From an uncultured Elusimicrobia bacterium (GTDB lineage Bacteria; Elusimicrobiota; Elusimicrobia; Elusimicrobiales; UBA9959): a stretch of DNA of 64,000 bases. Below are positions 6,911 through 58,134 of the stretch, in pieces; within the stretch, counting starts at the first letter, position 1; each line of letters begins with the position of its first letter. The stretch is taken from positions 3,883 through 67,882 of the forward strand of contig CAIXBR010000123.1 in the NCBI GenBank assembly GCA_903917735.1. Direction: 5' to 3'. Under the pieces are notes generated by a model. It was not told where the DNA came from. It made no database searches and was given only the letters and a program-made list of their open reading frames with translations. A program made the position numbers and the translations under genes.

Positions 6911-7166
6911 CGCCTGTTTTATCTATAATAACAAAACGCGGGCGTTTTTATGGATTTTGCGCGGTCCCCCCAGCGGCCGGCTGACCGGGCGTGTTTGCGC
7001 AGGGTTGTTGGTTTGTCAGTCGTCGGCCGGGGCGGGTTCTATATCTTAAATATAAGTCCGCGCGCAGGTCTAACCGGCATTCTTCGTCCGGCGGACCGCA
7101 GATTTGGGCTGTTTTGAGCGCGGGCTTGAATGTCGGGAATTCAGCCGGCAGGCCCAAGTGGGTTAA
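6911..7166 (-). mobile_element. IS91-family 3'-end relic, copy A (short form, diverged)
   Basis: Minus strand encodes GLPAEFPTFKPALKTAQICGPPDEEC. CTATAATAAC block at 6923-6932. Ends at GGGTTAA (7166). Confidence 0.65.
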
Positions 7167-24907: not shown

Positions 24908-25196
24908 CAGAAAACACAAAGCTAATTATCGACTGTTTTTCCAGAGAGCCGCACCTTTTTCTTCTCCTGAAAGTTGCTAAAACTGCACCCTACCGCTATA
25001 ATAACAAAAAGCGTGGCTTTTCTTTGAAATTTTACTGAGTTCCCCGCGCCCGGCAGTGGCCGGGCGGGTTCTATTGCTTCGTATAAGTCGCCTTTCGGGT
25101 CCCGCTGGCAGTCTTCGTCTGGTGGACCGCAGGTTTGCGGCGCTTCAGGGGCAGGTTTAAACTTCGGGGAATCAGCGGGAGCCCCAGGTGGGTTAA
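24908..25196 (-). mobile_element. IS91-family 3'-end relic, copy B (short form)
   Basis: Minus strand encodes LTHLGLPADSPKFKPAPEAPQTCGPPDEDCQRDPKGDLYEAIEPA. TTGCTA-17-TATAAT at 24974-25002. Ends at GGGTTAA (25196). Confidence 0.8.
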
Positions 25197-25264: not shown

Positions 25265-25948
25265 ATGAGGTGGGAACCAACGATAAGTGCCCTTATGTTT
25301 ACTATAGATTTTCGGATCAGAGTCGGGTTTATGATCGTCGCCATGGTCTGGAATGTGGGGGCATTGGCGGCGGCGCAGCCGCAGGATGACGATCCTGTCA
25401 TCGAACTGCAAAAGACCCTGGAAGAGCAGGGAAAGCCTTATCAGGCGATAAACAATCTTAATCCTTTTAGTGATGACTACGGCAAGACAGATCCGCTTAC
25501 CCATACAAACTCATCAGGCGCCGTGGTCGTTTCATCCCAGTCGGCCAAGCAATTGGCGCAATTACAAAAGCTATTGTCCACCCCGGTCGTGCATGGCTAC
25601 TTGAGTCTGTTTTCTAAACCGGTTTTATCAAGCGGCATAAACAAGGTTATCAAACGTCCTAACCGCAAGATCCTTTTATATTCGGAAATAGGCTTACTGC
25701 TCTGCATGATCGTTTTTCGGGCTTGGCGACAATCCAAGGCGAAGCATTGGTACCGCAAGCTGTGGATAACTTTTTATTGCCTGGTTTTGGGCATGGGTCT
25801 TGGCGTGTTTGTGGTTCCGGCCGTTGTCATGGGGCGAAGTTATTTTGGTACGCTAAAGGAAATCGCGCAAAGCCTGCTGCCTTCGCATCATCGATATATT
25901 TTTAAAATTCCGGCCTTTGGAAACAATAAAGGACTCGGGGGAAGATAG
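25265..25948 (+). CDS. Hypothetical membrane/exported protein
   Basis: 227 aa with an N-terminal hydrophobic segment plus two C-terminal TM helices. No recognisable motif. Confidence 0.5.
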   Translation: MRWEPTISALMFTIDFRIRVGFMIVAMVWNVGALAAAQPQDDDPVIELQKTLEEQGKPYQAINNLNPFSDDYGKTDPLTHTNSSGAVVVSSQSAKQLAQLQKLLSTPVVHGYLSLFSKPVLSSGINKVIKRPNRKILLYSEIGLLLCMIVFRAWRQSKAKHWYRKLWITFYCLVLGMGLGVFVVPAVVMGRSYFGTLKEIAQSLLPSHHRYIFKIPAFGNNKGLGGR

Positions 25949-26038
25949 GCGGGAATACTTCAAGCACCCGCGCCAGACAGGCGGCCCAGGAATTAGCCTT
26001 CTTGTTCTGATGGTCTAGCAGGCGTTCCATGATTTATC
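25925..26038 (-). pseudogene. IS91-family transposase fragment
   Basis: Minus strand reads ..DHQNKKANSWAACLARVLEVFPPIFP. It matches KKKANSWAACLARVF.EIFPLICP of copy I. Confidence 0.6.
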
Positions 26039-26084
26039 AAGGCTATGCTAGTGCCGGAACAAGGCCTATGGCCATCAGACGACC
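26039..26084 (+). repeat. 46-nt hairpin mini-repeat, copy m1 (diverged)
   Basis: AAGGCTATGCTAGTGCCGGAACAAGGCCTATGGCCATCAGACGACC aligned to copies m4/m5. Confidence 0.6.
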
Positions 26085-26189
26085 ATGCCTGCGCTGCTGC
26101 CTCCATAGGTTGGAGCGCTCTCCTGAAAATAGGTTAGAATATAATAGATATTTATCGGGGGCTCTTTAGCATGGAAAACATTTAAGCGC

Positions 26190-34808: not shown

Positions 34809-35080
34809 CTGCAGGAAACATAAGTGAGGCTATCGCCTGATTTTCCGGAGAATCTCCCCTTTTCCTTCGCTGAATTTTGCCGGGTTCCCCCTCGTCCGGC
34901 GGTTTGCCGGGCATGCGTATCCAGCTGGCATTGTTCATCGGGCGGGCCGCAGTTTTGCAGTGCTACAGGGGCAGGTTTGGACTATGGAAAATCGGCGGGC
35001 AACCCCAGGCAGGTTAAGAGCCGCATTAGCTCTTTATCATTGAGAATAACAGCCACCGGCTTTATTTCTCTTTTGCATTT
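34809..35080 (-). mobile_element. IS91-family 3'-end relic, copy C (long form, internally deleted)
   Basis: Outer end CTGCAGGAAACATAAG. Minus strand encodes KCKREIKPVAVILNDKEL.. Lacks the TATAAT block and part of the tail. Confidence 0.65.
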
Positions 35081-36786: not shown

Positions 36787-37194
36787 CTGTAGGAAATATA
36801 AGAGCGGTTATTGCCTGTTATTTTCTTTTTTTTCGGAGAACCGCCCCTTTTTCTTCGCCTGAAATTTGTCGAAAACTTCCCTTACCGCTATAATAACAAA
36901 AAGCGGGGCTTTTCTTTGAAATTTTGCCGAGTCCCCCCGCGCCCGGCGGTTGCCGGGCGTATCGGGCGGTTAGTGGTTGGGTCAGTCGTCAGCCGGGGCG
37001 GGGTCTATTGCTTCGTATAAGTCGCCTTTGGGGTCCGGCTGGCTGTCTTCGTCTGGCGGGCCGCAGGTTTGCGACGCTTTTGCGTCAGGCTTTAACTTCG
37101 GGAAATCAGCGGGCAGGCCCAGGTGGGTTAAAAGCCGCACAAGTTCTTTATCATTGAGAATAATAGCGGCCGGCTTCATTTCCAGTTTACATTT
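36787..37194 (-). mobile_element. IS91-family 3'-end relic, copy E (long form, best preserved)
   Basis: Minus strand encodes KCKLEMKPAAIILNDKELVRLLTHLGLPADFPKLKPDAKASQTCGPPDEDSQPDPKGDLYEAIDPAPADD then stop, then the hairpin GCCCGGC-AACC-GCCGGGC, an AT-rich block, and the outer end ..CCTACAG. Confidence 0.85.
36866..36894 (+). promoter_or_regulatory. Conserved sigma70-like motif inside the relic end (reads antisense to the transposase relic)
   Basis: TTGTCG-17 nt-TATAAT. The same spacing is found in copy B (24974-25002, TTGCTA), copy I (49252-49280, TTGCTA), copy D (TTGCAA/TTATAA), and copy H on the opposite strand (48071-48099). Confidence 0.45.
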
Positions 37195-37196
37195 GA

Positions 37197-37850
37197 TTAT
37201 GGAACCTGTGGGGGCTCGTGACTAGCAGCTGATGGCAAGATTTTGGGTGTTGTATTCTTATCAACCTGCTCCCCTATCCCGGGATGGTCTTTTTTCAACT
37301 GCGCCATTTCGGCTTTATTGGCGTCCCGCAGTGCTTTGAGAGATGCGCTTTGGCCGGCTTTCCTGGCTTTCATGGCCCTGCGTATTTCCGACTGAGGCTT
37401 CGACTTCAGACTTTCCCTGAGCACCGCTATTTCCTCTGCCTGACTGTTTTTTAATTCGGTGATAGCAGCTCTGTGCTTTTTCCTGAGTTCATAAACGGTG
37501 CTTATTTTCTCCTGCCGGGCCGGCTCCTGCTTAACCGGGGTTCCGGACAACTCAGGCGGGAGCAAAGCACCGGCCGGCTCAGACTTAATCGGAGCTCCTG
37601 CCGGCTCGGACTTGAGGAGGGTTCCGTTCGGCTCTGACTTGACCGGGGCTCCGGCCAGTTCGGGTTTGAGCAGCGCTCCGGACGGCTCAGACTTAAGCGA
37701 GGTTCCGGCAGGCTCGGATTTGAGCGGGGTTCCGGGCTGATCGGACTGTACCGGGGTGGTGGATATTGCAGGCCTGCTCTCCTGGGTGTTTTGCGCGCAG
37801 GAAGGCGCAGCGAACCAGACCGCTGTCATTACCGCAAATATCGTTTTCAC
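37197..37850 (-). CDS. Secreted protein with 9-aa tandem repeats and a basic helical C-terminal half
   Basis: Signal peptide MKTIFAVMTAVWFAAPSCA, eight LKSEPAG(A/T)x-type units, then an ELKNSQAEEIAVLRESLK.. helical region. Confidence 0.65.
   Translation of the reverse strand: MKTIFAVMTAVWFAAPSCAQNTQESRPAISTTPVQSDQPGTPLKSEPAGTSLKSEPSGALLKPELAGAPVKSEPNGTLLKSEPAGAPIKSEPAGALLPPELSGTPVKQEPARQEKISTVYELRKKHRAAITELKNSQAEEIAVLRESLKSKPQSEIRRAMKARKAGQSASLKALRDANKAEMAQLKKDHPGIGEQVDKNTTPKILPSAASHEPPQVP
37533..37748 (-). repeat. 27-nt in-frame tandem repeat (about 8 units)
   Basis: Repeated GGCTC(A/G)GACTT(A/G)A..GG..C(C/T)(G/C)C units encoding (L/V)KSEP(A/S/N)G(A/T)(L/P/S). Confidence 0.7.
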
Positions 37851-38321: not shown

Positions 38322-38626
38322 CCGCCTTTATAATAACTAGCCTATGGCCATGCCGTAACAAGAGCTATGTGCATCAGACAGCCAAAAATCGCGGTTTTTC
38401 TTTAAAATTTTGCTGAGTTCCCCCGCGCCCGGCGGTAGCCGGGCGTATCGGGCGGTTAGTGGTTGGGTCAGTCGTCAGCCGGGGCGGGGTCTATTGCTTC
38501 GTATAAGTCGCCTTTCGGGTCCGGCTGGCAGTCTTCGTCCGGCGGGCCGCAGGTGTGTTCATATAACGTCGCTTGCGGGGCCGGTTTAAACTTCGGGAAT
38601 TCAGCAGGCAAGCCTAAGTGAGTTAA
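38322..38626 (-). mobile_element. IS91-family 3'-end relic, copy G (short form, carries mini-repeat m2)
   Basis: Minus strand encodes LTHLGLPAEFPKFKPAPQATLYEHTCGPPDEDCQPDPKGDLYEAIDPAPADD then stop. Hairpin GCCCGGC-TACC-GCCGGGC. Ends at GAGTTAA (38626). Confidence 0.8.
38338..38383 (+). repeat. 46-nt hairpin mini-repeat, copy m2
   Basis: TAGCCTATGGCCATGCCGTAACAAGAGCTATGTGCATCAGACAGCC. It interrupts TATAATAAC | AAAAATCGCGG, which is contiguous in copies B, E and I. Confidence 0.65.
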
Positions 38627-38715
38627 CTATGTCGAAGGGTTTTTCTTAAATCTGGCTCCCCCGATTGAATGATTTCCGCAACTTTATGAAAGAAGAAACG
38701 GATTTATTTCAGACC

Positions 38716-38740: not shown

Positions 38741-39375
38741 AGCACTAATATTCATTTGGCCGGATTTTCACGGGAGAAGGTCAATATTTATCCGTAACCG
38801 TATACAAACGTTTACGCCCTCTAATAACTTTTGCCGAAGGTTTTTAACGCCGTTGAACAGCTTTTCCGTGAAGGGAAGGCCGTTCGGCGCCCTGGGCGCG
38901 GGCCAGCGGTTGACGCTGGCGTTCAAGTTCGGGAAAGAACTTGAAGGTTCCGGCCGGAAGCCCGCAGACTCCCCTGTTACCCGCGGGAAGCGCGCGGAGC
39001 ATGAAAAGGCCGCGCCGCTCCCCTTGCGAAAGAGAGCGGAAAAACGCTGCTCGAACAGCAGCTGGAAGAAAAGTTCCTGACGTGGTAAAAGTTCGCCTTT
39101 CCTGGCGGCCGTTCCGACCCCCATTAAGCAACAATCATCTGAGAATGTAAGAGTTCCTCCGCGGAACTCCTTCTGTACTCAACTTTCCCTTGAAAATTAC
39201 CGGTTTATCACGTATAACATCCGATAATATTGTTTGGTAAATGTTTGATGATTTGATGGTTTTTCCCTGATTTTTATCCGACACATTACAAACGGTAAAA
39301 AAATAAGGGTGTTCTTGTGGCCTCGGGAATTAACAGAGGTTGATTTGCGGCGTTTTACGGCGCGGCATCCGGCCT

Positions 39376-42300
39376 ATGAAAAGGATAATATTGTTTTTAG
39401 CGGCAACGGTACTCCTGTCGGCGGCGGTTTCCGCCGAACCGGAGTTGTTCCCGTTCAAGAACGGCATCCGGCCGCTCACCCCCGATCAGGAAGCGTACTT
39501 GAAGGACAGGGTGGTCCGGATAAATTCCATCAAGCCCAACAGACTGGCTCTGGCCAGGAGCGCCGCCGCGTCCGCGCCCCAGGCCGGACTGCCGCCCTCC
39601 GTCAGCAACTGGCAATACCTTCCCAAGGTCGGCAACCAGGGCGGCCAGGGCAGTTGCGCAGCGTGGTCCACCTGTTACTATTACAAAACCTACCAGGAAG
39701 CCAAGGAGCATGGCTGGAATAACCCCGATTACGGCGTGAATCCGGACCATGTCATGAGTCCGGCGTTCTGTTACAATCTTGTCAATGGTGGGGAGGACGG
39801 CGGGAGCATGCCCTCCTGGATAATGCAGATGATAGCGGATCACGGCGACGCTACCTGGCAGGATATGCCGTACGACCAGGGGGACTATCTCTCATGGCCG
39901 TCCCAGGCGGCATGGAAGAACGCCCTCCTCTACCGGGCGCAGAGCGCGGCGACCATAGATATTACCACCGATGCGGGAATAACGGCGCTTAAACAGCAAC
40001 TGGCCAACGGGGATATAGCCGTCATCGCGTTCAACGTCACGGCCAGCTTCGACCATTATCCCAGCGACTATCCCGGGGTCAACAGCCAGGTGCTTTATGA
40101 TAATTCCGGCGGCTCGCGCGGCGGGCATGCTGTGACGGTGATGGGCTATGACGACACCAAATCCTATGTGGGCGGTAACGGCGTTACCCAGCACGGCGCG
40201 TTCAAGATAGTAAATTCCTGGGGCAATACATGGGGAATAACCGACCCCGACATCGGGACCAAGGGATTTGTGTGGATGGCTTACGCATACCTGAAGAGCA
40301 AGACCGGCTACGGGCAGGCCTGGACTATGGTCGACAGGACGGGATATCAGCCTACCGTCTACGGAACCTTCGGCCTGGAGCATCCCAGCCGCGGGGACCT
40401 TAACGTTTATTTCCTTGGCGGCAGCAATAACGACAGTCCGGATTGGTCTTTTAACGCGCTGCCCAGCATGGGCGGGACGCATGCAGTTGCGCAGAAGGTC
40501 ACCGTGGACCTGTCATTGTACAGTCCCGATCTTAATGGTAAATTCTGGCTTAAGGTCAGCGATTCCCTGTCCAATTCCGCCACGGGACAGATAACATACA
40601 TGGGCGTTCAGCAGGCCGGTGGTCAGGAAGAAGTCTCGGCGGACACCCCGAAAAATACGCAGAACGGCAGCTATGTCTATGTACAGCTTTCCAACGGCGG
40701 AGGGGTAGGGTATACCGCGCTCGATCCTTCGTTCACCCAGGTTAACATTACAAGCCTCACGGTGACCTGGGACCTGATACCCGGCGCTAATTATACGGTA
40801 GTGCTGAGTTCGGACAGTTATTACACCGGCATTCTGTCTTCCGGGACCCAGGCCCAGAATTCCATCAACTTCCCCGGCCTTTCGGCAGGCGCAAGATATT
40901 ATTTCCAGGTCAAGATATCGACCGAATCGGACATGGGTTATTTTTACAACCGTTCTTCGGCCAGGACCCTGGTGGGGACATGGTCGGCCGCGACTGCGAT
41001 GTCAACGCCGCGGGGTTATCATGCCGCCATACTGCTGCCGGACGGCCGGGTGCTTGTTGCCGGCGGCTCCAGCGGCTCCTATCTCTCCTCCGCGGAAGTG
41101 TACGATCCGGGCGCAGGCACCTGGTCAAGCGCGGGTTCGATGGCGGCCGCGCGGACCTTTCCCGGCGCCGTGCTGCTGTCCGACGGCCGGGTGCTTGTCT
41201 CCGGAGGTTCCGGCTCCGGCGGTTTTCTTTCTTCCTCCGAACTCTACGACCCGGAGACCAATGCCTGGTCCGGCGCGGGGTCCATGTCCTCTCCGCGCGG
41301 GCGCCACACCGCCACGTTGCTACCTAACGGTAAGGTGCTTGTGACCGGCGGTTATTATTATGATAGTGAATGGCATTATCTTTCTTCCGCCGAGTTCTAC
41401 GACCCGAAAACCAATGTCTGGTCGAGCGCGGGCTCCATGTTTTCTGAGCGGGTATTTCATACCGCCACGCTTTTGCCTAACGGCAAAGTGCTGGTGGCAG
41501 GCGGGGATAACGGCTATCTCCCTCTCGCTTCGGCCGAGCTCTACGATCCCGTCACCAACAGCTGGTCAGCCGCTGCCGCGCCGCTATATGCGCGATATGC
41601 CCACACCGCCACGCTGCTGCCCGGCGGCAAAGTTCTGGTCGCGGGCGGGGGGGGAGGCGGATCCACCTCAGAACTCTACGATTCGAATACGAACAGCTGG
41701 TCGAGCGGGGGAGACATGCTGTCCTCGGGCCGTCAGTCTTCCACTTCGGCATTGCTGCCCGACGGCAAGGTTCTTGTGGCCGGCGGCCAGGGAGGCGGTT
41801 CCTCGACCGAGCTCTACGATCCGAAGACTAACGGCTGGTCGAGCGCTGGTTCGATGCTGTCTTCGGAGCGGGCCTACGGCACAGCCTCGCTGCTGCCCGA
41901 CGGCAGGGTTCTTGTGGCGGGCGGATACAGCAGCGGCTACCTTTCCTCCACCGAACTCTTCTCCCCGGCCGATCTGGTTTTGACAAAGTTGGCCCCGGTC
42001 TTTGCACAGGTGGGGGTTTCAAACCTTTCTGTTACATGGACGCCCGTTCAGGGCGCTAATTACACGGCTGTGCTTTCTTCGGACGCGAGTTTCATGAACC
42101 TTGCATCTTCAGCGACCCAGAGCGGAAATTCGGCCGGCTTTACGGGGCTTTCGCCCGCTACGCGGTATTTCTTCGAGGTCAAGCTTTCCACCGAGACCGA
42201 ATGGGCCTATGCGGGGAACACGATCTCCACCGCGACGCCTTCCCCCGCGGTCCTGTCCTGGACCGGAGAAACTAATTATGCCGCCGACGGACTGGACCCC

Positions 42301-45300
42301 GAAACCGGAACATCCACGATGACATTCACATACCGGGTTAAATTTACCGACGCCAACGGCAAAGCCCCGGCGGCCGGTTATCCGAAGCTCCATATACGGA
42401 AAGGCGGCGATGAAATAGTCGGCAGCCCGTTCACGATGGATCACATCAGCGGCGGTCCCTTAGCCGGCGCGATATATGAGTATTCGCGAAAGTTAAGCGC
42501 GGGAACGGATTATTCCTGCTATTTCGAGGCTTATGATTCCGATAATAACAGGGCCGCGGGGCCGCCCGTCTCGGCGGTGGACTCCCCGGACGTCTATGAC
42601 GGCGTCTGGGCGGTTGCGAATCATATGTCGTTGGCGCGAAGCGCCCATGCCGCAGTGCTGCTGCCCGGGGGCCGCGTGCTTATGGCCGGCGGTTCCAACG
42701 GATCTTACATTTCCTCCGCGGAGCTCTATGACCCGAACACTAACGCTTGGTCAAGCGCGGGTTCCATGTCATCAGCGCGCACCTATCACAGCGCCACGCT
42801 GCTGTCAGGCGGCAAAGTGCTGGTAGTAGGAGGGGCAGGAGGCGGCTCTTCTTCCGAGCTCTACGACCCGGACGCGAACAGCTGGTCGGGCACGGGCTCT
42901 ATGGCGTCGGCGCGGTATTATCACACCGCCACGATGCTGCCCAGCGGAAAGGTGCTTGTGGCGGGCGGCTCAGGCAGCGGCTGTCTTTCCTCGGCCGAGC
43001 TCTACGATCCCAATACGAACACCTGGTCAAGCGCGGGTTCCATGTCGGCGGCCAGGGAGTTCCATGCCGCCGTGCTGCTGTCTAACGGCAAGGTACTGGT
43101 GACAGGGGGGTATAACGGCAGTTCATATCTTTCCTCGGCCGACCTCTACGACCCTAATACGAACAGTTGGTCGAGCGCGGGTCCGATGTCTTATTCGCGC
43201 GGGTCGCACACCGCTACCTTGCTTCCCGGCGGGAAAGTGCTTATCGCGGGCGGAGGCTCCACGGCCGAGCTTTACGATCCGAACACCAATACCTGGTCGA
43301 GTGCGGGCTCTATGTACGTGACGCGCTACGACCACACGGCCACGCTGTTGCCCGACGGCAGGGTGCTCGTCGCCGGCGGTTCGGGCAGCGGTTATCTTTC
43401 CTCGACCGAGCTTTACGACCCGAACACGAATACCTGGTCAAACGCTGGGGCCATGTCGGCGGCACGATATTATCACACCGCCACCCTTCTGCCGTCCGGC
43501 AAGGCGCTGGTTGCCGGCGGTTATTATTATGAAAACAACACGTGGCATTATCTCTCATCCGCCGAACTCTACACTCCTGTCGGTTTAATGTTGACAAAGG
43601 TGACCCCGTCCCTTACGCAGGTGGGATTTTCGAGCTTTACCGTGACATGGACGCCGGTCGCCGGCGCGAATTACACGGCGGTCCTTTCCACAGACGCGAA
43701 TTTCATAAGCCTTGATTCTTCTGTGACCCAAGGCGGGAATTCAGCGACCTTTACGGGTCTCGCGCCGCTGACGCGGTATTTCTTTGAGGTCAAACTCTCC
43801 ACTGAAGCGGAATGGGCTTACTTCGGAAACAGAATATCCGCCGCGACGCCTTCTCCCGCGACCGCGCTGCATCCGCAATTCTTCCAGGTTTACGCGGCGA
43901 GCGCGACCGTGACCTGGGATGCTGTTCCCGGTTCCGCTTATACGGTGGTCCTGGGTTCCGATAGTTTCTACACGAATATCGTGTCGTCCGCGGGCCAGGC
44001 CGCGAACACAAAGACCTTTACGGGACTCAGTGCGGGAACAAGCTGGTATTTTGAGGTCAAGCTTTCTTCCGAAACCAATGCGGCTTACGCCTTCAATAGG
44101 ATATCCACGGCCACTCTTGCGGTCATGCCCTATCTCTCCGCCGGGCCGGTGTTTACGCATCTCTGCGCCAGCAGCATGACCGTGAACTGGTCTTCCGGAA
44201 CGGCCGCAATCGGTTTTGATCCTGCCGGCACGCTTTACACAGTGGAGCTCTCTACGGACGCCGGCTTCCAACCGGTGCTGGCTTCATCGCAAACTTACGG
44301 CCTGAGCGGAGTATTTGAGGATCTATCCCCTAACACATCCTATTATGCCCGTGTGCAGGCAATGAACGGCGGCGGTACGGGTACGGATTTCACCGCATTG
44401 GGCGCAACAGCCACTCTGGCGGTCATGCCCGGCCGGCCGGCGGGCGATGTGTACACGAAAATCTTCGCCGGCAGTATGACGGTCAACTGGTCTTCGGGGA
44501 CTGCTGCGACCGGCTACGATCCGGCCGGCACGCGTTACAAAGTGGAATTTTCAACATCAGCCGGATTCATCCCGATCTGCGGTTCCTCGCTGACATACGC
44601 TTTGAGCGCGGGCCTTACCGGTCTCGAGCCGGATACCATCTACTATTCAAGGATCGCGGCGGTAAACCGCTCAGGTGAGCCCTCTCTCTGGCTCGTCGCT
44701 CCGTCCACGGCCACCCTTCCCAACCCGCCGGCGGACGATAGTTCCCCGGTGAGGGACATGTCGGCCGGCAGTTTTGAATATCGATGGTCGGCCAACGACA
44801 ATCCTTCCGGAACGCTCTACGTGGCCCAGCTCTCGACCGCCCCGGGTTTTTCCGGGAGCGGCGATCGGCCGACCGCGACTGCCGGGACTTCCGCCAATTT
44901 CGCGGGTTTGACCGGCAATACGGCTTATTATGCGAGGGCGTATGCCATAGGCCGCGCAGGGCACATAACTCAGTTCAATACCGTAGTTTCCACTGTCACG
45001 CCGCCCCAGGCCCCCGCCGCCGGGGTTTTCAGCGTAGCCGGCTCGTCCGCGCTAACCGCCAACTGGGGGTTGGGCCTTAACAACGCCGCCGGGTTGACCT
45101 ATCTGGCACAGCTTTCCGTTTCGAATGTTTTTGCGGACGTCCTCGCGTCATCCGCTACGGCGGGAGTCTCGGCGGTATTCGGGCTTGGCGGACAGGGAGC
45201 CCCGCTCACTCCCGACACTTCCTACTACGTGCGCGTACTGGCGCTCGGTTATAGCGGTGCAGGGAACTTTTCGGACCTCGGGGGGATAGCAACGCTGGCT

Positions 45301-46794
45301 AACGCGCCGTCCCGGATGGAGGCTGTCGCCATAACCTCAGTGTCGGTGAGCCTGGACTGGTTGCCCAACGGCAATCCCGAGCCCGGCGCGGCATATGAAC
45401 TATGGCGGGATGTTGCCCCGGGCTTTACCGCGCCGCTGAAGACCAGCGTCTCCGGAAGCGGGTGTCTTGCCGGCGGTTTGTCCCCGCTGACGACCTATTA
45501 TTTCAAGGTTCGCGCGGTCAACAAGGCGGGGGTATATACGGATTTCGACTCGGATCTGTCCGTTCTGACTCACCCTCCCGCGCCGGGAGCAATCGTAATG
45601 AACGGAACGGCGGCGGGAGTGTCGTCCGTCAGATGGGCCTGGAACGACGCCGGAGCTGGAACGGCATACAGGGTCGTGAGCGCCGCGGGAGCGGACCTGT
45701 CGGGAGAGCTTGAGGCGGGGAGTACGTTCTGGGTCGAACCGCAGCTCTCCACTAATACCGCTTACTCCCGCATGGTGGTGGCGTCCAATCTTTCCGGGAT
45801 CTCCACTTCCGCTGCCGTTACCCGTTTTACGCTGGCTGCGGCGCCGGCCGGTTCCGGATTCCTCGAGGTCTGGCACAGCTCGGCCTCCATGAAATGGTCT
45901 GAGAACGGCGATCCGCCCGGAACCTCTTTCGAGGCGCAATACTGGACAATGGGCGGTTCAACGTCTTCAGTTGTGGCCGGTTCTACCTGTGCCGTGCTGA
46001 CCGGCCTGGCGCAGGAGACCACGGTCTATGCGCGGGTCAGGGCTCTTAACGGAGACGGCATTCCTTCCGCGTACGACGGGACGGCTTCCACCTTTATTCC
46101 GAACACGATGGTCGTTATCCAGCCCGGCAGCGGCTATACGCTTGTTTACGATCAAATATCATTGAATATCGCTCCCGACACTTTTAATGAGACCGTGAAT
46201 CTCCTTGTGAAACGGCCCGCCCAGGCACCGCCTGACAGCGGCGGACTTGCGGGTTTTTCGGCAAGTGTCCTGGTGGACATCTCAGCGCTGAACCCGTTAA
46301 CGCAAAAGCTCCAACCGTTAAAGGAAGTGATAGTCGCGGCGGATTACCGGAACATGGACCTGGAGGGAGCCGATGAAGGCACCTTGGTCATGGCGACTTA
46401 TAATGAAAGCCGCGCCGTCTGGGTCCCGCTTCCCTCGGTAAGGGACAGGAACGCTAAAACGGTGACGGCGAGGACCGGTCATTTCTCCCTGTTCCAGCTC
46501 ATGCATTCGTTCGCCCCGGAGAGCATTTCGGGGATAACGGTCGGGCCGAACCCTCTGAGGCCGGTAAGGAACCCGGGGCAAGCGTTCACGTTCAGGCATC
46601 TGCCTTCCGGCGCGAGCGTTAAAATTTACACTTGTCTCGGAGAACTGCTGTACGAAACGGCCGCTGACACGTCCGGCATGGCCGTCTGGGACGGAAAAAA
46701 CAAGGCGGGCAGGCTGGTCGGGAGCGATGTTTATCTGGCGCTGTTAAAATGGAAAGGCGAGAGAAAAGTCCTTAAACTGGTCATGGAAAAATGA
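39376..46794 (+). CDS. Giant secreted protein: C1 (papain-like) peptidase + two Kelch propeller blocks + many Fn3-like domains + T9SS-type C-terminal domain
   Basis: Start set at MKRIILFLAATVLLSAAVSAE (signal peptide). C1 triad context: QGGQGSCAAWS, GGHAVTVMGYDD, IVNSWGNTWG. More than 20 Kelch units (LLPDGRVLVAGG..ELYDP.TN.WS.AGSM). CTD GPNPLRP..VKIYTCLGELL..DVYLALL..LKLVMEK. Confidence 0.85.
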   Translation: MKRIILFLAATVLLSAAVSAEPELFPFKNGIRPLTPDQEAYLKDRVVRINSIKPNRLALARSAAASAPQAGLPPSVSNWQYLPKVGNQGGQGSCAAWSTCYYYKTYQEAKEHGWNNPDYGVNPDHVMSPAFCYNLVNGGEDGGSMPSWIMQMIADHGDATWQDMPYDQGDYLSWPSQAAWKNALLYRAQSAATIDITTDAGITALKQQLANGDIAVIAFNVTASFDHYPSDYPGVNSQVLYDNSGGSRGGHAVTVMGYDDTKSYVGGNGVTQHGAFKIVNSWGNTWGITDPDIGTKGFVWMAYAYLKSKTGYGQAWTMVDRTGYQPTVYGTFGLEHPSRGDLNVYFLGGSNNDSPDWSFNALPSMGGTHAVAQKVTVDLSLYSPDLNGKFWLKVSDSLSNSATGQITYMGVQQAGGQEEVSADTPKNTQNGSYVYVQLSNGGGVGYTALDPSFTQVNITSLTVTWDLIPGANYTVVLSSDSYYTGILSSGTQAQNSINFPGLSAGARYYFQVKISTESDMGYFYNRSSARTLVGTWSAATAMSTPRGYHAAILLPDGRVLVAGGSSGSYLSSAEVYDPGAGTWSSAGSMAAARTFPGAVLLSDGRVLVSGGSGSGGFLSSSELYDPETNAWSGAGSMSSPRGRHTATLLPNGKVLVTGGYYYDSEWHYLSSAEFYDPKTNVWSSAGSMFSERVFHTATLLPNGKVLVAGGDNGYLPLASAELYDPVTNSWSAAAAPLYARYAHTATLLPGGKVLVAGGGGGGSTSELYDSNTNSWSSGGDMLSSGRQSSTSALLPDGKVLVAGGQGGGSSTELYDPKTNGWSSAGSMLSSERAYGTASLLPDGRVLVAGGYSSGYLSSTELFSPADLVLTKLAPVFAQVGVSNLSVTWTPVQGANYTAVLSSDASFMNLASSATQSGNSAGFTGLSPATRYFFEVKLSTETEWAYAGNTISTATPSPAVLSWTGETNYAADGLDPETGTSTMTFTYRVKFTDANGKAPAAGYPKLHIRKGGDEIVGSPFTMDHISGGPLAGAIYEYSRKLSAGTDYSCYFEAYDSDNNRAAGPPVSAVDSPDVYDGVWAVANHMSLARSAHAAVLLPGGRVLMAGGSNGSYISSAELYDPNTNAWSSAGSMSSARTYHSATLLSGGKVLVVGGAGGGSSSELYDPDANSWSGTGSMASARYYHTATMLPSGKVLVAGGSGSGCLSSAELYDPNTNTWSSAGSMSAAREFHAAVLLSNGKVLVTGGYNGSSYLSSADLYDPNTNSWSSAGPMSYSRGSHTATLLPGGKVLIAGGGSTAELYDPNTNTWSSAGSMYVTRYDHTATLLPDGRVLVAGGSGSGYLSSTELYDPNTNTWSNAGAMSAARYYHTATLLPSGKALVAGGYYYENNTWHYLSSAELYTPVGLMLTKVTPSLTQVGFSSFTVTWTPVAGANYTAVLSTDANFISLDSSVTQGGNSATFTGLAPLTRYFFEVKLSTEAEWAYFGNRISAATPSPATALHPQFFQVYAASATVTWDAVPGSAYTVVLGSDSFYTNIVSSAGQAANTKTFTGLSAGTSWYFEVKLSSETNAAYAFNRISTATLAVMPYLSAGPVFTHLCASSMTVNWSSGTAAIGFDPAGTLYTVELSTDAGFQPVLASSQTYGLSGVFEDLSPNTSYYARVQAMNGGGTGTDFTALGATATLAVMPGRPAGDVYTKIFAGSMTVNWSSGTAATGYDPAGTRYKVEFSTSAGFIPICGSSLTYALSAGLTGLEPDTIYYSRIAAVNRSGEPSLWLVAPSTATLPNPPADDSSPVRDMSAGSFEYRWSANDNPSGTLYVAQLSTAPGFSGSGDRPTATAGTSANFAGLTGNTAYYARAYAIGRAGHITQFNTVVSTVTPPQAPAAGVFSVAGSSALTANWGLGLNNAAGLTYLAQLSVSNVFADVLASSATAGVSAVFGLGGQGAPLTPDTSYYVRVLALGYSGAGNFSDLGGIATLANAPSRMEAVAITSVSVSLDWLPNGNPEPGAAYELWRDVAPGFTAPLKTSVSGSGCLAGGLSPLTTYYFKVRAVNKAGVYTDFDSDLSVLTHPPAPGAIVMNGTAAGVSSVRWAWNDAGAGTAYRVVSAAGADLSGELEAGSTFWVEPQLSTNTAYSRMVVASNLSGISTSAAVTRFTLAAAPAGSGFLEVWHSSASMKWSENGDPPGTSFEAQYWTMGGSTSSVVAGSTCAVLTGLAQETTVYARVRALNGDGIPSAYDGTASTFIPNTMVVIQPGSGYTLVYDQISLNIAPDTFNETVNLLVKRPAQAPPDSGGLAGFSASVLVDISALNPLTQKLQPLKEVIVAADYRNMDLEGADEGTLVMATYNESRAVWVPLPSVRDRNAKTVTARTGHFSLFQLMHSFAPESISGITVGPNPLRPVRNPGQAFTFRHLPSGASVKIYTCLGELLYETAADTSGMAVWDGKNKAGRLVGSDVYLALLKWKGERKVLKLVMEK
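40975..42245 (+). repeat. Intragenic segmental duplication, copy 1 (Kelch block + Fn3)
   Basis: Ends ..LTKLAPVFAQVGVSNLSVTWTPVQGANYTAVLSSDASF..RYFFEVKLSTETEWAY..TPSPA. Colinear with 42600-43860. Confidence 0.7.
42600..43860 (+). repeat. Intragenic segmental duplication, copy 2 (Kelch block + Fn3)
   Basis: Ends ..LTKVTPSLTQVGFSSFTVTWTPVAGANYTAVLSTDANF..RYFFEVKLSTEAEWAY..TPSPA. Confidence 0.7.
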
Positions 46795-47828
46795 AAACGG
46801 GCAAATTAGTGGATTGGCGCTATGTCCTGGTCTTTCCGGCGATCTTCGCCGTAATATGTCCGTTACGCTCCTTCGCGGGTTTTGACGCCGGCGACAAAGG
46901 CACATCCGCGGCGCAATTCCTTAAATTGGGCGCCGGGGCGAGGGCGGCCGGAATGGGGGAGGCATATTCGGCGGTCTGCGCCGACTCCGGAGCCGTTTAC
47001 TGGAATCCGGGAGGCCTCGGCTTTCTGAACGGCGTTTCCGGGACCTTCACGCACGCGGACCTGTTCGGCGAGCTGAACTATGAGTACCTGGGGTACGCGC
47101 AGTCCTTCGGGAACGCCGGAACCGCCGGGCTGGGCGTCCAGTACCTGTCGTCCGGGCGCATACCCGAAACGGACGCCGCCGGTTTTGAGACCGGAGCCGC
47201 TATGGCGCCGGTGCAGTACGCCGTCTCCCTTGCTTATGCGCGCAAGGTCGGCGGCTTCGGGATAGGCGCGGCAGCCAAGTATATAAGGTCCCGGCTCTCG
47301 GCGACCGCCTCCGCCTTAGCCGCCGACGCCGGCGTTCTAAGCCCTGCCCTGATGGATAATAAGCTCCGGCTGGCGTTCGTGGTCCAGAACGCGGGCGGCG
47401 GATTGAAATACGGGCAAAGCACCGATCCCCTGCCTTTAAATTTGAAACTGGGCGGCGCTTTCTCTTTTTCGGACAAGCTGATCTTCGGCCTCGATGTTAA
47501 TTCCCCGCGCGATAACAGGATCTATGCCGGCGCCGGCGCTGAATACCTGCTCCGCTATTCCGGGGTCTCTTTCGCCCTCCGCCTCGGTTATAACAGCAGG
47601 ACTTCTGGAGACATCGACGGGATGACCGGAGTTTCTACGGGGCTCGGGGTTGTGTTCCACGACATGGTCCTGGACTACGCTTTTATTCCGTTCGGTCCCC
47701 TCGGTTTCGCGCACAGGATCTCGCTGAGCTTCAAATTAGGCGGAAAGGCTCCGTTCCCGGCCCCCGCAGCGCTGAGAAAACCAGGCTCTCCGGTCCTTGG
47801 CGGGGCGGACGTGCAAAAATCGCGGTGA
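46791..47828 (+). CDS. PorV-like outer-membrane barrel protein
   Basis: ATGA overlap with the giant gene. Signal peptide, AAGMGEAYSAVCADSGAVYWNPGGLGF block, ends ..VLDYAFIPFGPLGFAHRISLSFKLG plus a short tail. Confidence 0.7.
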   Translation: MKTGKLVDWRYVLVFPAIFAVICPLRSFAGFDAGDKGTSAAQFLKLGAGARAAGMGEAYSAVCADSGAVYWNPGGLGFLNGVSGTFTHADLFGELNYEYLGYAQSFGNAGTAGLGVQYLSSGRIPETDAAGFETGAAMAPVQYAVSLAYARKVGGFGIGAAAKYIRSRLSATASALAADAGVLSPALMDNKLRLAFVVQNAGGGLKYGQSTDPLPLNLKLGGAFSFSDKLIFGLDVNSPRDNRIYAGAGAEYLLRYSGVSFALRLGYNSRTSGDIDGMTGVSTGLGVVFHDMVLDYAFIPFGPLGFAHRISLSFKLGGKAPFPAPAALRKPGSPVLGGADVQKSR

Positions 47829-47833
47829 CGAGC

Positions 47834-48137
47834 TTAACCCACCTGGGCCTACCCGCTGATTTCCCGAAGTTCAAGCCTGCCGCAAAAGCGTCGCAAACCT
47901 GCGGCCTGTCAGACGAAGACTGCCAGCCGGACCCGAAAGGCGACTTATACGAAGCAATAGACCCCGCCCCGGCTGACGACTGACCCAACCACTAACCGCC
48001 CGATACGCCCGGCAACCGCCGGGCGCGGGGGGACTCGGCAAAATCTCAAAGAAAAGCCCTGCTTTTTGTTATTATAGCGGTAGGGCGCGGTTTTAGCAGA
48101 GGATAACAGGCGATAATCGCACTTATGCTGCCTACAG
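47834..48137 (+). mobile_element. IS91-family 3'-end relic, copy H (short form, opposite orientation)
   Basis: Plus strand encodes LTHLGLPADFPKFKPAAKASQTCGLSDEDCQPDPKGDLYEAIDPAPADD then stop, hairpin, and outer end CCTACAG at 48131-48137. Starts 5 nt after the PorV-like stop. Confidence 0.85.
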
Positions 48138-48146
48138 ATCGGATTC

Positions 48147-48210
48147 AAGGCTATACCGTGTTAGGCCAATGGCAATGCCGCAACGGACGCTATGCGTATC
48201 AGACAGCGGC
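48147..48210 (+). repeat. Hairpin mini-repeat, copy m3 (longer, diverged)
   Basis: AAGGCTATACCGTGTTAGGCCAATGGCAATGCCGCAACGGACGCTATGCGTATCAGACAGCGGC, 9 nt beyond the outer end of copy H. Confidence 0.45.
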
Positions 48211-48985: not shown

Positions 48986-49536
48986 AAAAGGATACCCCTG
49001 TATTTGTGGCGCCTTTCCGCTAGTACGCTACAACAATGGCTATCGGCATAACAGCTAGCGGCACCTGTATTCCTGAACTTCAGATATTCAATTGTAGCGT
49101 CACAACCCGGATTTGTCAAGGGCCGTAGGACCCCGTAGGACGATTGTCACGAAAAGGTAAAGCGTCAAAATATGTAGGCAACATAAAGACGGTTATCGCC
49201 TGTTATCCTCTGTTTTTCCCGGAGAACCGCACCTTTTTCTTCGCTTGAAAGTTGCTAAAACCGCGCCCTACCGCTATAATAACAAAAAGTGGGGCTTTTC
49301 TTTGAAATTTTACCGAGTCCCCCCCGCGCCCGGCGGTTGCCGGGCGTGTCGGGCGGTTAGTGGTTGGGTCAGTCGTCAGCCGGGGCGGGGTCTATTGCTT
49401 CGTATAAGTTGCTTTTTGGGTCCGGCTGGCAGTCTTCGTCGGGCGGGCCGCAGGTTTGCGGCGCTTTTGCGGCAGGCTTGAACTTCGGGAAATCAGCGGG
49501 CAGCCCCAGATGGGTTAAGAGACGCACAAGTTCCTT

Positions 49537-49582
49537 GGCCGTTTGACGAGCATAGCTCTTGATACGGCACTGGCATAGCCTT
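49537..49582 (-). repeat. 46-nt hairpin mini-repeat, copy m4
   Basis: AAGGCTATGCCAGTGCCGTATCAAGAGCTATGCTCGTCAAACGGCC, inserted between ILND and KELVRLL codons that are contiguous in copies C and E. Confidence 0.75.
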
Positions 49583-49633
49583 GTCATTGAGAATAACAGC
49601 CACCGGCTTCATTTCTAGTTTGCATTTAGGGCA

Positions 49634-49653
49634 TTATGCCGATATCGGCATAA
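49634..49653. repeat. Perfect 20-bp palindrome inside the transposase relic
   Basis: TTATGCCGATATCGGCATAA, immediately upstream (sense direction) of the point where long-form copies C and E begin. Confidence 0.8.
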
Positions 49654-49677
49654 GGGGCAGATAAGCGGGAAGATCTC

Positions 49678-49723
49678 GGCCGTTTGATGGCCATAGGCCT
49701 TGATACGGCACTGGCATAGCCTT
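49678..49723 (-). repeat. 46-nt hairpin mini-repeat, copy m5
   Basis: AAGGCTATGCCAGTGCCGTATCAAGGCCTATGGCCATCAAACGGCC, splitting ..CLARVF | EIFPLICPLC. Confidence 0.75.
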
Positions 49724-50270
49724 GAAAACCCGGGCCAGACAGGCGGCCCAGGAGTTGGCCTTCTTTTTGAGCTTATCAACTTTTTCTTGCACGATAATGC
49801 GGTCTGTTTCCTTTGCCGCTTTCGCGGCAAGCAGCGGCCGCAGCGGGGACCTGGGCGCCAGCGCGCCGTAATAGTGAATTATATTTTTATTTTTTTTGGG
49901 GGGGCGGCATAAGCAGGCCCCAGCGCCGCATGAACTCGATGGGCGTCATGGTCAGCAGTTCCGATTTCCCCTCCCTTGTATCAGTGCGGTAGATGACCAG
50001 ATTGCTTTTGACCGCATAGATAAGCCGCGCCAGCGAAATGGCGGGGCGGGGACCGGTGTAAAAACCAGTTCACACCTGCCCAGGGAGCCTGCTTTCATAT
50101 CAAAGAGCCCGTCCGAGACCACCGCGTGCACATGGATGTGCAGGTTCAGCGAGCCGCCGAACCGCTGTATAAAATGCAGTTGGGCGGGCGCCCCGCCGCC
50201 GTTCTTCCGCAGGAAGCGGTCTATTTCACGCGTGAATATTTTACAGCGTAGTGTCGCTCATTAGAGGGTC

Positions 50271-50673
50271 ATTTTTCAAGAAAAAAAGGTCCCTTCCACA
50301 GTTTTGTGGCATATTTTTAGCTAAAATTCGCTACGACATCCCTCCGTTCAAGGCTTTTACGCGGCCGGGTTCTCTTTTATTTGACGTCGGACGAAGCCGC
50401 GCCAGTCACTCATCAGGATCAAGGCGCAGGCGTAACAGTTGCCTTTGCCCCTGCCTTCCATGGGAGGCCCAGAAAACCTTTGGTTCACTGCCGTATCCAT
50501 TTAACGGCGGATTTCTCCGCCTTCAGGTTTTTGGCTTCGGATTTTCATCCGGCCAACGCTCCGCTGGCTTACGGCCGTGGCGTCCTCGCCCAAAAAGAAG
50601 GGCGAAGGAAGCTGCTAATCGGGACGTGTGGTTGTTCCAACACTACGCATAGCTCACTTCCTTCGCCAAATCT
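50271..50673 (-). ncRNA. Candidate IS110/IS1111 bridge (seek) RNA region
   Basis: 403 nt without an ORF, downstream of the transposase stop. Contains an 11-bp stem GGCGAAGGAAG...CTTCCTTCGCC and a GGCGGAGAAATCCGCC hairpin. The call rests on position and structure only. Confidence 0.3.
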
Positions 50674-51693
50674 TTACGCGAAAGCCAGCGCCTCATCGAA
50701 CACTTCCTGGTCTTTCAGCACGTGGTAGCAGGCGCGCGCCAGTTTATGCGCCACCGCCTTGGCCGCCACTATCTTGTTCGTCTTGGTCATCTTGCGTTGA
50801 TAGAAATTCCTGATACGCTCGTTATACCGTATGGCAAAATGTGCAGCTTCAATAAACGCCCAAGCCAGGTATTTATTCCCGTTCTTCCGATTGCCTTCGC
50901 CTTTCTTTTTGCCGTTGCTCCAGCGGGAACTGCCCACACAGCTCGCATAGGAAGCGAAGTGCCCGACTTTCTTAAAGCGCTTCATGTCGCCGGCTTCGTA
51001 CATTATCGTCATGCCGAGGACCTCCCAGATCCCGTCGATCGTTAGGATCTTCCTGAATTCCGGTTTTAACCTGGCCTGCTTAAGAACCACTTTTTCAAGC
51101 GCAACAACCTGTTCGTCCAGGCAACGCATAACTGATAGATTGCTTTTTACTGCCAGCTCAAGCACGCTGTTCCCGCGGCAGTACTGGCCGATTGTCTCGT
51201 CATCCAGCTTCCGGACACCGTCCGTGTTTATTTTTTTGCCGCTGTTCCGGCTCACCAGGCCTTGTATGCTCAGTATCTGCGTGGTGCGGCAGCGCACCAA
51301 CTGGGCGCGCTTGCGCAGCAGGTCCCGCACGGCCCGGTCTTCCTTCGGCTGTATGTAGCCTGTCGGCAATACGCCCAGCCGCAACAGGTGCGCCAAGTGC
51401 CGGGCATCGTGTTCGTCCCCGGTGTATTTAAGCCCTTCATAAACTTTCACCGCCGCAGTGTTCACAAGCTTTACATCGTAGCCCTCGTCCATCAGCCCAT
51501 CGACCAGCCAGTACCAGTTATACGTCGATTCCACAGCTATCGCCTGGATCCTTTTCTTGTACGGCGCCAGTCCGGCCAATATGGTCTTCAGATCATTGGG
51601 GTAGCGTTCTTCAAGCACAACCCAGTCCTTTTCGTTCAGTATTACCAGCACGCTGTTATTGGAATGCAGGTCTATTGCCGAGTATAATTTCAT
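50674..51693 (-). CDS. IS110-family (DEDD) transposase
   Basis: Start set at MKLYSAIDLHSNN after AAGGAGGGG. Blocks AIDLH, AVESTYNWYWL, and C-terminal FASYASCVGS..GNKYLAWAFIEAAHFAIR are typical of the family. Confidence 0.85.
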   Translation of the reverse strand: MKLYSAIDLHSNNSVLVILNEKDWVVLEERYPNDLKTILAGLAPYKKRIQAIAVESTYNWYWLVDGLMDEGYDVKLVNTAAVKVYEGLKYTGDEHDARHLAHLLRLGVLPTGYIQPKEDRAVRDLLRKRAQLVRCRTTQILSIQGLVSRNSGKKINTDGVRKLDDETIGQYCRGNSVLELAVKSNLSVMRCLDEQVVALEKVVLKQARLKPEFRKILTIDGIWEVLGMTIMYEAGDMKRFKKVGHFASYASCVGSSRWSNGKKKGEGNRKNGNKYLAWAFIEAAHFAIRYNERIRNFYQRKMTKTNKIVAAKAVAHKLARACYHVLKDQEVFDEALAFA

Positions 51694-51783
51694 ACAAGTC
51701 CCCTCCTTAGCTGTTTTGTAATTGCTTCTAGACAAAGCAATGTTACAAACTGCGGGAGGGGACCCTCTATATGATTATCGGGC

Positions 51784-58019: not shown

Positions 58020-58077
58020 TGTTTAACCTTCCCGGCGGGCCGCCCCGCTTTTCCACAATGATATTTTACAACTTGCG

Positions 58078-58134
58078 TGGGTGCCGTACCAAGCGCTATG
58101 CTCATCAAACGGCCGATACCAAGCGCCGTCAGCC
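58078..58134 (+). repeat. Hairpin mini-repeat, copy m6 (partial, with extra half-unit)
   Basis: GTGCCGTACCAAGCGCTATGCTCATCAAACGGCC plus GATACCAAGCGCCGTCAGCC, in an ordinary intergenic spacer. Confidence 0.5.

Follow-up and report, generated by a model that had tools for sequence, protein, structure and literature searches.

Repetitive extragenic palindromic (REP) hairpins are common in bacteria, but how they move is little understood; few clean insertion footprints are available, and Proteobacteria have received most of the attention. Here we describe a 46-nt hairpin unit found in a 64,000-nt stretch of DNA from an uncultured Elusimicrobia bacterium (the window, meaning the whole stretch that was analysed), a metagenome scaffold of the BUCK21 project. 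The unit carries one short hairpin and, beside it, a second hairpin enclosed by an outer stem, and we read it as a non-autonomous mobile DNA element of the REP type, widespread in Elusimicrobia. We found no description of these repeats in Elusimicrobia in the literature.

Several described systems come close. Like the repeats of the systems that pair REPs, or REP doublets forming hairpins (REPINs), with REP-associated tyrosine transposases (RAYTs), the unit is a tiny G+C-rich hairpin repeat with many intergenic copies, compensatory stem changes, CT/CA dinucleotides beside the hairpin (where REPs are cleaved) and long persistence in its lineage; REPs, too, are presumed to be single-strand substrates of a trans-acting HUH (histidine-hydrophobic-histidine) enzyme. 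Unlike REPs, it has no GTAG or CGTC tag, consists of two modules, one of them nested in the outer stem, and clusters as direct tandems or nests rather than as inverted pairs (REPINs or bacterial interspersed mosaic elements). No unit-flanked RAYT gene was found among the loci listed, the RAYT-like genes that we met carrying another repeat (AAAGGYASCAGGNNCCTTT), and the footprints of the unit are unusually clean, with a definable target. In the CGTC-tagged REPs the stems are 8-9 bp long and start with AT; these repeats bear an unpaired CGTC tag and end in a CCA tail, occur mostly as head-to-head dimers, and are known from several phyla, Elusimicrobia not being among those reported (PMC3733652). 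They are likewise small hairpin repeats with no dedicated transposase gene adjoining and sometimes lie inside genes, but the unit shows none of their AT-start stem, tag, tail or dimer features.

Members of the IS91 family insert without duplication beside 5'-CTTG or GTTC next to oriIS, have one or two palindromes at oriIS and one by the terIS cleavage site, and form a bottom-strand single-stranded circle (PMC13181058). Mobile miniatures of IS801 (229, 360 and 679 nt) retain the ori end and have a target-like tetranucleotide at their start; the IS801 targets include CAAG, and the transposase acts in trans (PMC3189936). With IS91 derivatives, which are likewise served by a transposase acting in trans, the unit shares the lack of target duplication, a preference for CTTG/CAAG beside one end, a target-like other end, a palindrome by each end, and tandem or partial products such as rolling-circle read-through would give. 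However, it is smaller by a factor of five to fifteen than the mobile IS91 derivatives reported so far, shows no detectable homology to either the ori or the ter end of the IS91-like elements in the same genomes, has a looser target in which CA alone is strong, and is conserved phylum-wide instead of being bound to a single insertion sequence.

Palindrome-associated transposable elements (PATEs), derived from IS200/IS605, also have subterminal hairpins at both ends, insert without duplication on one side of a short motif and move via single-stranded DNA with a one-strand bias, as we propose for the unit, but they are longer and keep recognisable ends of the parent insertion sequence. Target and right-end tetranucleotides usually differ in the IS200/IS605 family, whereas those of the unit tend to match. 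No IS200/IS605 element was met in the DNA loci that we fetched for comparison (designated L003, L166 and so on); whole genomes were not scanned for one. Nor does the unit resemble a classical MITE (miniature inverted-repeat transposable element), for its ends are not inverted repeats of each other and it makes no target-site duplication. In the way it works the unit recalls REPs and PATEs, and in its rule for ends and target the IS91 miniatures, but it conforms to none of the types compared, no IS91 or IS200 parent with homologous ends having been met. We filed it as a variant of its own: an untagged, two-module, self-targeting hairpin mini-element specific to Elusimicrobia.

Copies of the unit in the window

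An initial annotation of the window had proposed two copies inside one transposase relic (relic I), a third inside another (relic G), and diverged copies at 26039, 48147 and 58078. Both 46-base sequences that it quoted were present exactly and are 88% identical. A covariance model made from the family described below recovered six copies, exactly those already named, with E-values from 2e-19 to 7e-7; the next match in the window had an E-value of ~0.04. Dinucleotide-preserving shuffles of the window contained no match to the unit. The six copies (c1 to c6) and three of the relics in or beside which they lie are as follows, with bit scores, covariance-model spans and, where a site could be read, the insertion point (^).

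49537..49582, minus strand: c1, 46-nt unit, CAAGGCTATGCCAGT GCCGTATCAAG AGC TAT GCT CGTCAAACGGC; 70.2 bits; span 49535-49585; in relic I between codons ILND and KELV; site before insertion AATGA^CAAGGAAC
49678..49723, minus strand: c2, inner stem GGCC/GGCC; 68.4 bits; span 49676-49726; in relic I between ARVF and EIFPLICP; site before insertion GTTTT^CGAGATC
38338..38383, plus strand: c3, decayed; 55.9 bits; span 38335-38385; site TATAATAA^CAAAAA, in relic G downstream of the gene
26039..26084, plus strand: c4; 52.9 bits; span 26036-26086; abuts the cut-off end of an IS91-like fragment at 25938-26033
48147..48210, plus strand: c5, diverged composite of an extra 5' hairpin and a TTAGGCC-type unit; 29.6 bits; span 48160-48210; starts 8 nt past the end of relic H
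58067..58134, plus strand: c6, 47-nt subtype with a partial-repeat tail; 49.9 bits; span 58065-58116
49170..50270, minus strand: relic I, which contains c1 and c2, an IS91-family transposase pseudogene, frameshifted and truncated at its 5' end
38384..38635, minus strand: relic G, host of c3, a ~310-bp mini-derivative of an IS91-like element
47833..48139, plus strand: relic H, the same ~310-bp derivative, its ori-side end adjoining c5

Of the six copies, five are in or next to IS91-like relics. The remaining one, c6, lies between two divergent ordinary genes and away from any relic, as had been noted; the unit proper (58067-58113) is followed there by GATACCAAGCGCCGTCAGCC (58114-58134), a partial second copy of its inner part. 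Relic I includes the downstream (ori-side) end, ...CCTACATAT. When both units were removed, its conceptual protein matched Pfam Y2_Tnp (PF04986) with an E-value of 3e-11 and was 64-90% identical to metagenomic IS91-family proteins.

Filled and empty sites

Perhaps the hairpins were ancestral parts of the IS91-like element, as their position in or beside relics in this window might suggest, or chance palindromes? The joined flanks of each copy were blasted against all fetched DNA, and the junctions were then read. At least 12 insertions had an empty orthologous or paralogous site. In every filled/empty pair the filled site had gained exactly 46 nt, or 47 nt in the CAATACTTGCGTAGGT subtype, and the target was not duplicated. 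When the c1 region was compared with the paralogous relic F (36898-37194), the offset was 12387 before the unit and 12433 after it, a 46-nt gain; the c1 site was also empty in three fetched loci (L126, L130 and L118) and in intact homologues. Among eight close IS91-family homologues, six read ARVFE(V/I)(F/Y)P across the c2 site and five read VAVIL(N/A)DKEL(V/E)RLL across the c1 site, the others ending before these sites. The stretch that c3 splits, TATAATAA|CAAAAAGCG, is unbroken in the other relics. The three interruptions proposed from the window alone are hence real insertions, the two relic I sites being continuous in the intact homologues and metagenome copies that cover them.

The same pattern was seen beyond the window. 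IS91-like genes or the regions downstream of them received ten independent insertions (c1, c2, c3, L040, L046, L034/L020, L155, L142/L154 and two in L166), and all ten sites are empty in other copies. In a close genome pair, L015 holds a nested unit where L055 has the bare host unit, and L055 has a unit where L015 holds at most a remnant. A nested unit in L059 likewise faces a bare host in L009, and two units in L032 are missing from L024 and L096.

Wherever the start of the unit differs from the right flank (c3, L032 and all nested cases), the boundaries were unambiguous, and the unit runs from the base before the 5' tag of hairpin 1 through ...ACGGC. The boundaries of c1 can slide by 1-5 nt because CCTTG stands at both of its junctions. 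We considered whether the repeated CAAGG at c1 was a 5-bp target duplication and rejected this: c2, c3, the L032 units and the nested copies have no such repeat, and the gain is still 46 nt.

We conclude that the empty sites refute an origin of the hairpins as ancestral IS91 parts or chance palindromes, a reading to which we give next to no credence. Both relic I sites are unbroken in the covering intact homologues and in paralogous relics, the majority of copies elsewhere are found between ordinary genes, and the shuffled windows contained no match. The suggestion that the unit is a very small REP/MITE-like mobile hairpin is instead backed by the filled/empty pairs and by the nested self-insertions. 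The family offers many exact filled/empty pairs, a definable target, known self-nest positions and natural stem variants across at least 48 species of a little-studied phylum, and the recognition rules of the unit are directly testable with oligonucleotides.

Target motif and left end

Read in the orientation CAAGGCTATGCCAGTGCCGTATCAAG...ACGGC, the unit usually inserts directly 5' of CA(A/G)N (YTTG^ on the complementary strand). In the right flanks of 109 copies, C occupied the first position in 91% and A the second in 65%; the third position held A (55%) or G (28%). CAAG was the commonest right-flank tetranucleotide (18/109), followed by CAAA (13) and CAGA (11). Many flanks read CAAA, CAGA, CAGC, CGCA or CACC, so the motif is a preference and not a strict tetranucleotide. 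The following sites were read.

^CAAG: c1, L155, L059
^CAAA: c3, L040, L046
^CAGA: L015
^CAGC: L032, L096
^CGCA: L032
^CACC: L034
^CGAG: c2
^CAAT: L142
^CAAC and ^CGAA: L166

One site, TATAATA(A)^CAAAA in the IS91-like downstream region, was struck independently by two subfamilies, represented by c3 in the window and by L040. At the c1 site the paralogous relics read GATAAAGAA and the host copy reads GACAAGGAA; CAAG had therefore been acquired there before the insertion.

The first four bases of the unit vary (CAAG 24, TAGG 14, CTAG 13, CTGG 9, TAGA 8, GTGG 6), and in many copies the initial bases repeat the start of the right flank: CAAGG in c1 and L155, CAATA in L142, CTGGCC in L012, CAGGCC in L075 and CGAAGC in L166. 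We compared unit starts with flanks in the 77 copies that do not have another unit as flank, using shuffled unit-flank pairings that preserve the consensus. At position 2 there were 44 matches, compared with 31.2 ± 3.6 in the shuffles; positions 3 and 4 each gave p ~0.02, and the sum over positions 2-8 gave p = 0.0005. The subfamily thus partly determines which target is chosen. Left end and target appear to be recognised alike, a match between them being favoured but not required.

Self-nesting, tandems and tails

Copies nest in one another because both internal loops of the unit display the target motif. Nested copies always lay at one of two sites in the host unit, GTAT^CAAG or NAT^CAGA. 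The first site, between GCCGTA(T) and CAAG, was occupied in L003, L052, L059, L066, L072 and L101; the second, between the base after hairpin 2 and CAGACGGC, was occupied in L015, L045, L047, L105 and L108. Nested units had the same orientation as their host, and clusters were direct tandems or nests. The orthologous pairs L059/L009 and L015/L055 prove that nested arrangements arise by insertion.

Some units are followed by two to four tandem CAGACGGC octamers (L039 at 6160-6195, L090, L109 and L004). This octamer is the exact segment from the internal target site to the right end. Direct tandems of ~2.2 units were found in L012, L013, L075 and L082. Octamer tails and tandems would fit either repeated cutting and joining at equivalent sites or rolling-circle read-through.

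Fold and covariation

The unit starts with two variable bases, C/T and then A/T. Hairpin 1, a stem of 3-4 bp with a TAT loop, is followed by a linker of 2-3 nt ending in T. The outer stem GCCGT/ACGGC then encloses a left loop A(T/A)CAA, hairpin 2 and a right loop NTCA(G/A); hairpin 2 consists of G-N-G/C-C, a TAT loop and the complement. This is the fold that had been predicted from the window, and it was the minimum-free-energy fold of c1 and c2 as DNA on both strands (z ~ -2.5). The decayed c3 no longer folds in this way.

The compensatory stem changes first noticed between window copies proved to be a property of the whole family. In an alignment of 109 distinct copies, 90% of the pair cells held standard pairs, and the covariation score was 0.283, compared with 0.082 ± 0.006 in shuffles and reached by 0/500 of them; it fell to 0.02-0.07 when pairing partners were slid by 1-3 columns. 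Pairs 5-15, 6-14, 7-13, 29-37 and 30-36 changed on both sides. Hairpin 1 occurred as GGC/GCC, GACC/GGTC, GGCC/GGCC, GGGC/GCCC, AGCC/GGCT and GCGC/GCGC, and hairpin 2 as AGC/GCT, CGC/GCG, GGC/GCC, GCC/GGC, TGC/GCA and CAC/GTG. The outer stem was near-invariant, in part because it is fixed in the search pattern. The covariation is not an artefact of the search, since the pattern did not include hairpin 1 and placed no constraint on the variable positions of hairpin 2. Mismatches in the stems were balanced (G-T 22, A-C 16) and therefore single out neither one strand nor RNA. Rfam gave no family at gathering score other than tRNA, and nothing meaningful at E-values up to 10 over 49300-49900.

Distribution and genomic context

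A degenerate core pattern of ~21 fixed bases, GCCGNANCAAGNNCTATGNNCNTCARAC, was scanned over both strands of 596 Gb, where by our own estimate ~0.5 matches would be expected by chance. Among the matches listed, it occurred at more than 110 loci in at least 48 species-level assemblies, each of them Elusimicrobia, Elusimicrobiales or Elusimicrobiaceae, or a metagenome-assembled genome (MAG) labelled only as a bacterium; every named one was Elusimicrobia. Viral contigs had no match to the core pattern. A nhmmer search found 172 copies of the unit in 110 loci.

Most copies are intergenic, and the apparent cases inside open reading frames (ORFs) lay at the edges of crudely called ORFs. The copies have ordinary housekeeping genes as neighbours, and the 25 commonest Pfam families of 150 neighbouring ORFs include no recurrent transposase. 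Of 58 copies flanked by co-directional genes, 41 were antisense to them when the unit is read toward ...ACGGC, a bias for which our own binomial estimate is p ~0.002 and which is tentative in view of the rough gene calls. The unit breaks up genes and causes confusion in both the annotation and the assembly of Elusimicrobia MAGs; it might also be of use as a lineage marker.

Candidate enzymes and mechanism

How might the unit move? Duplication-free insertion, a one-sided motif, end hairpins and strand bias are the signature of HUH single-strand transposition in IS200/IS605 and IS91. The unit fits, in line with the suggestion of the initial annotation that an HUH enzyme could act on it, because it makes no duplication, inserts on one side of a short motif, has hairpins at both ends and shows an orientation bias. 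By analogy, it is likely moved in trans by HUH single-strand transposition: it would fold as single-stranded DNA, and an HUH-type transposase would cut and rejoin it, cutting at the left end and at the target, which would be alike because both are recognised in the same way.

The initial annotation had proposed a look for Y1 (RAYT/IS200-like) and IS91 Y2 genes. IS91-like Y2 genes do occur in the same genomes as the unit, and one MAG (JAUSCK) holds a near-intact IS91-like gene together with the repeats; no RAYT-like gene was found in the 110 loci. We rank an IS91-family Y2 enzyme as a tentative first candidate, by analogy, because it uses the CTTG/CAAG target that the unit prefers and shares with the unit the absence of duplication, a target-like left end, end palindromes and the same genomes. 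The complementary strand of the unit, 5'-CTTG^GCCGT(C/T)TGA...GGCATAGCCTTG^, can be read as a CTTG target followed by a nested-palindrome end and by a single-palindrome end that has CTTG as its last bases. It is possible, though less likely than not, that the unit is the smallest rolling-circle transposon (IS91/Helitron-type, Y2 HUH) yet seen, with an ori-like nested and a ter-like hairpin, a CTTG/CAAG target, a choice of targets like its own left end, self-colonisation through the two target copies in its loops, and phylum-wide retention. If an IS91-type enzyme were indeed responsible, the unit would be the minimal rolling-circle substrate, showing how little DNA a Y2 transposase needs, and a bacterial counterpart of the non-autonomous Helitrons.

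A number of results weigh against this mechanism and its assignment to IS91. No enzyme was tied to the unit, and its stem mismatches show no asymmetry of G-T over A-C that would mark an active strand. Comparison of the unit with the local IS91-like ori end, ...CCTTATGTTTCCTACAGAT, and left hairpin, CGACAC...GTGTCG, gave no convincing similarity, the sole resemblance being a loose TATG..CAGA. The IS91-like copies themselves have no conserved tetranucleotide beside the ori end, which was defined from nine relic ends and ~14 metagenome copies, the upstream ends being inspected as well. Enrichment of units inside IS91-like DNA was rejected: by rough estimate, such DNA holds ~4% of the units and makes up ~5% of non-coding DNA, which is no clear excess. 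The association of units with relics in the window may reflect only the tolerance of dead DNA for insertions. Finally, conservation across at least 48 species, among the matches listed, is more in keeping with a domesticated enzyme inherited vertically than with an insertion sequence of patchy occurrence.

Such an enzyme could be a domesticated Y1 protein (RAYT/TnpA-REP), or an IS200/IS605 TnpA could be at work, with the unit as a REP-type element. The size of the unit, its intergenic spread and its stem covariation are REP-like, and persistence across at least 48 species among the matches listed recalls long-lived REPIN-RAYT pairs; RAYT-like genes do exist in related metagenomes, one of them from the sampling project of the window. 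The junction dinucleotides CA and CT are also the cleavage dinucleotides of TnpA-REP (PMC8266576). The RAYT-like genes that were found, however, are flanked by the different repeat AAAGGYASCAGGNNCCTTT, and tblastn with fragment and full RAYT-like proteins retrieved none in the 110 loci. No Y1 family was among the 25 commonest Pfam families of the 150 neighbouring ORFs, a sample that a lone Y1 neighbour could escape. The unit has no conserved GTAG or CGTC tag, and its copies are singletons, direct tandems or nested, not inverted dimers. We rank a Y1 enzyme second, less likely than not but little behind the IS91 type; in this reading hairpin 1 and the tetranucleotide directly 5' of it (CTAG, TTAG, CAAG or CTGG) would act as the GTAG-plus-palindrome, with cleavage at CA or CT. 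Much less probable is a host-selected structural motif, such as a stabiliser of mRNA 3' ends, a terminator or a protein-binding site, spread by recombination. REPs are known to acquire such host roles, and the phylum-wide conservation of the core, the mostly intergenic copies and their orientation bias relative to genes are in keeping with one. Yet recombination of a host motif would hardly account for precise 46-nt gains at unrelated sites, in dead transposase genes and in other copies, with a common target motif; moreover, there is no T-run, no Rfam family matched, and the balanced mismatches indicate a signal that is not RNA-specific. The unit may have a secondary host role. The neighbouring IS110-family (DEDD, RNA-guided) recombinase is the most improbable of these agents. 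IS110 elements insert without sizeable duplication at a short core common to donor and target, a CA or CT common to the start and flank of the unit would fit such a core, and an IS110-family element lies 530 bp away, with a stretch resembling part of the unit in its 3' non-coding region (50471-50511). That resemblance is marginal, however; 46 nt is too small to encode a guide RNA, the targets of the unit are too varied for a programmed 10-14 nt site, and in the window and in L134 the IS110 element stands at an IS91-like left hairpin, not at the unit.

The hairpin repeat AAAGGYASCAGGNNCCTTT is unrelated to the unit. It flanks RAYT-like (Y1_Tnp) genes in L164 (1650-1900 and 3203), L165 (700-1110) and L114 (5285-5305) and also occurs in four Elusimicrobia loci (L026, L043, L046 and L091). 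It probably marks a separate REP-RAYT system in the same lineage.

IS91-like relics and neighbouring features of the window

Four relics (6923-7166, 24909-25196, G at 38384-38626 and H at 47833-48139) have a common 5' boundary, (T)TTAACCCAC, inside the LLTHLGL codons and the same ori-side end. They look like a ~310-bp non-autonomous derivative that spread, comparable with IS801's one-ended products, and such a spread argues for trans activity in the past. Longer relics with other boundaries lie at 34831-35080+, 36801-37194+ and 49170-50270. The relic near 25000 is split into a C-terminal piece (24909-25196) and an upstream piece (25938-26033), and the gap of ~740 bp between them holds an unrelated 227-aa ORF (25265-25948). 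In L114 (4889-5278), an IS91-like element has invaded and truncated a RAYT-like gene, with the junction ...GGACTACAAGT|CAGGCGGAC; the exact ori boundary taken from a comparison with RAYT homologues is ambiguous to a few bases.

The IS110-family element (DEDD_Tnp_IS110 and Transposase_20) occupies 50251-51782 on the minus strand of the window, and a second copy was found in L134 (711-2240). Although the two copies are 77% alike overall, their 3' non-coding region of ~430 nt is near-identical in parts. Each of them immediately adjoins an IS91-like element at its left-end hairpin (CGACAC...), which suggests that the IS110 element targets this hairpin and carries a guide-type RNA. Within the conserved non-coding region, 50471-50511 on the plus strand reads GAAAACCTTTGGTTCACTGCCGTATCCATTTAACGGCGGA, like the unit minus its inner hairpin. 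With 13.8 bits and an E-value of 0.05, this weak match to the covariance model probably does not represent a true copy; a copy captured long ago, mimicry and chance are all conceivable origins.

Beside relic F, a 217-aa ORF (37197-37850) contains a tandem repeat with a period of 27 nt and about nine units (37521-37763). Another ORF, of 2484 aa (39340-46794), has a papain-like peptidase domain, many Kelch/beta-propeller repeats and internal DNA repeats of 130-300 nt. Because a PorV-like gene (46791-47828) follows it, the ORF probably encodes a giant secreted or surface protein.

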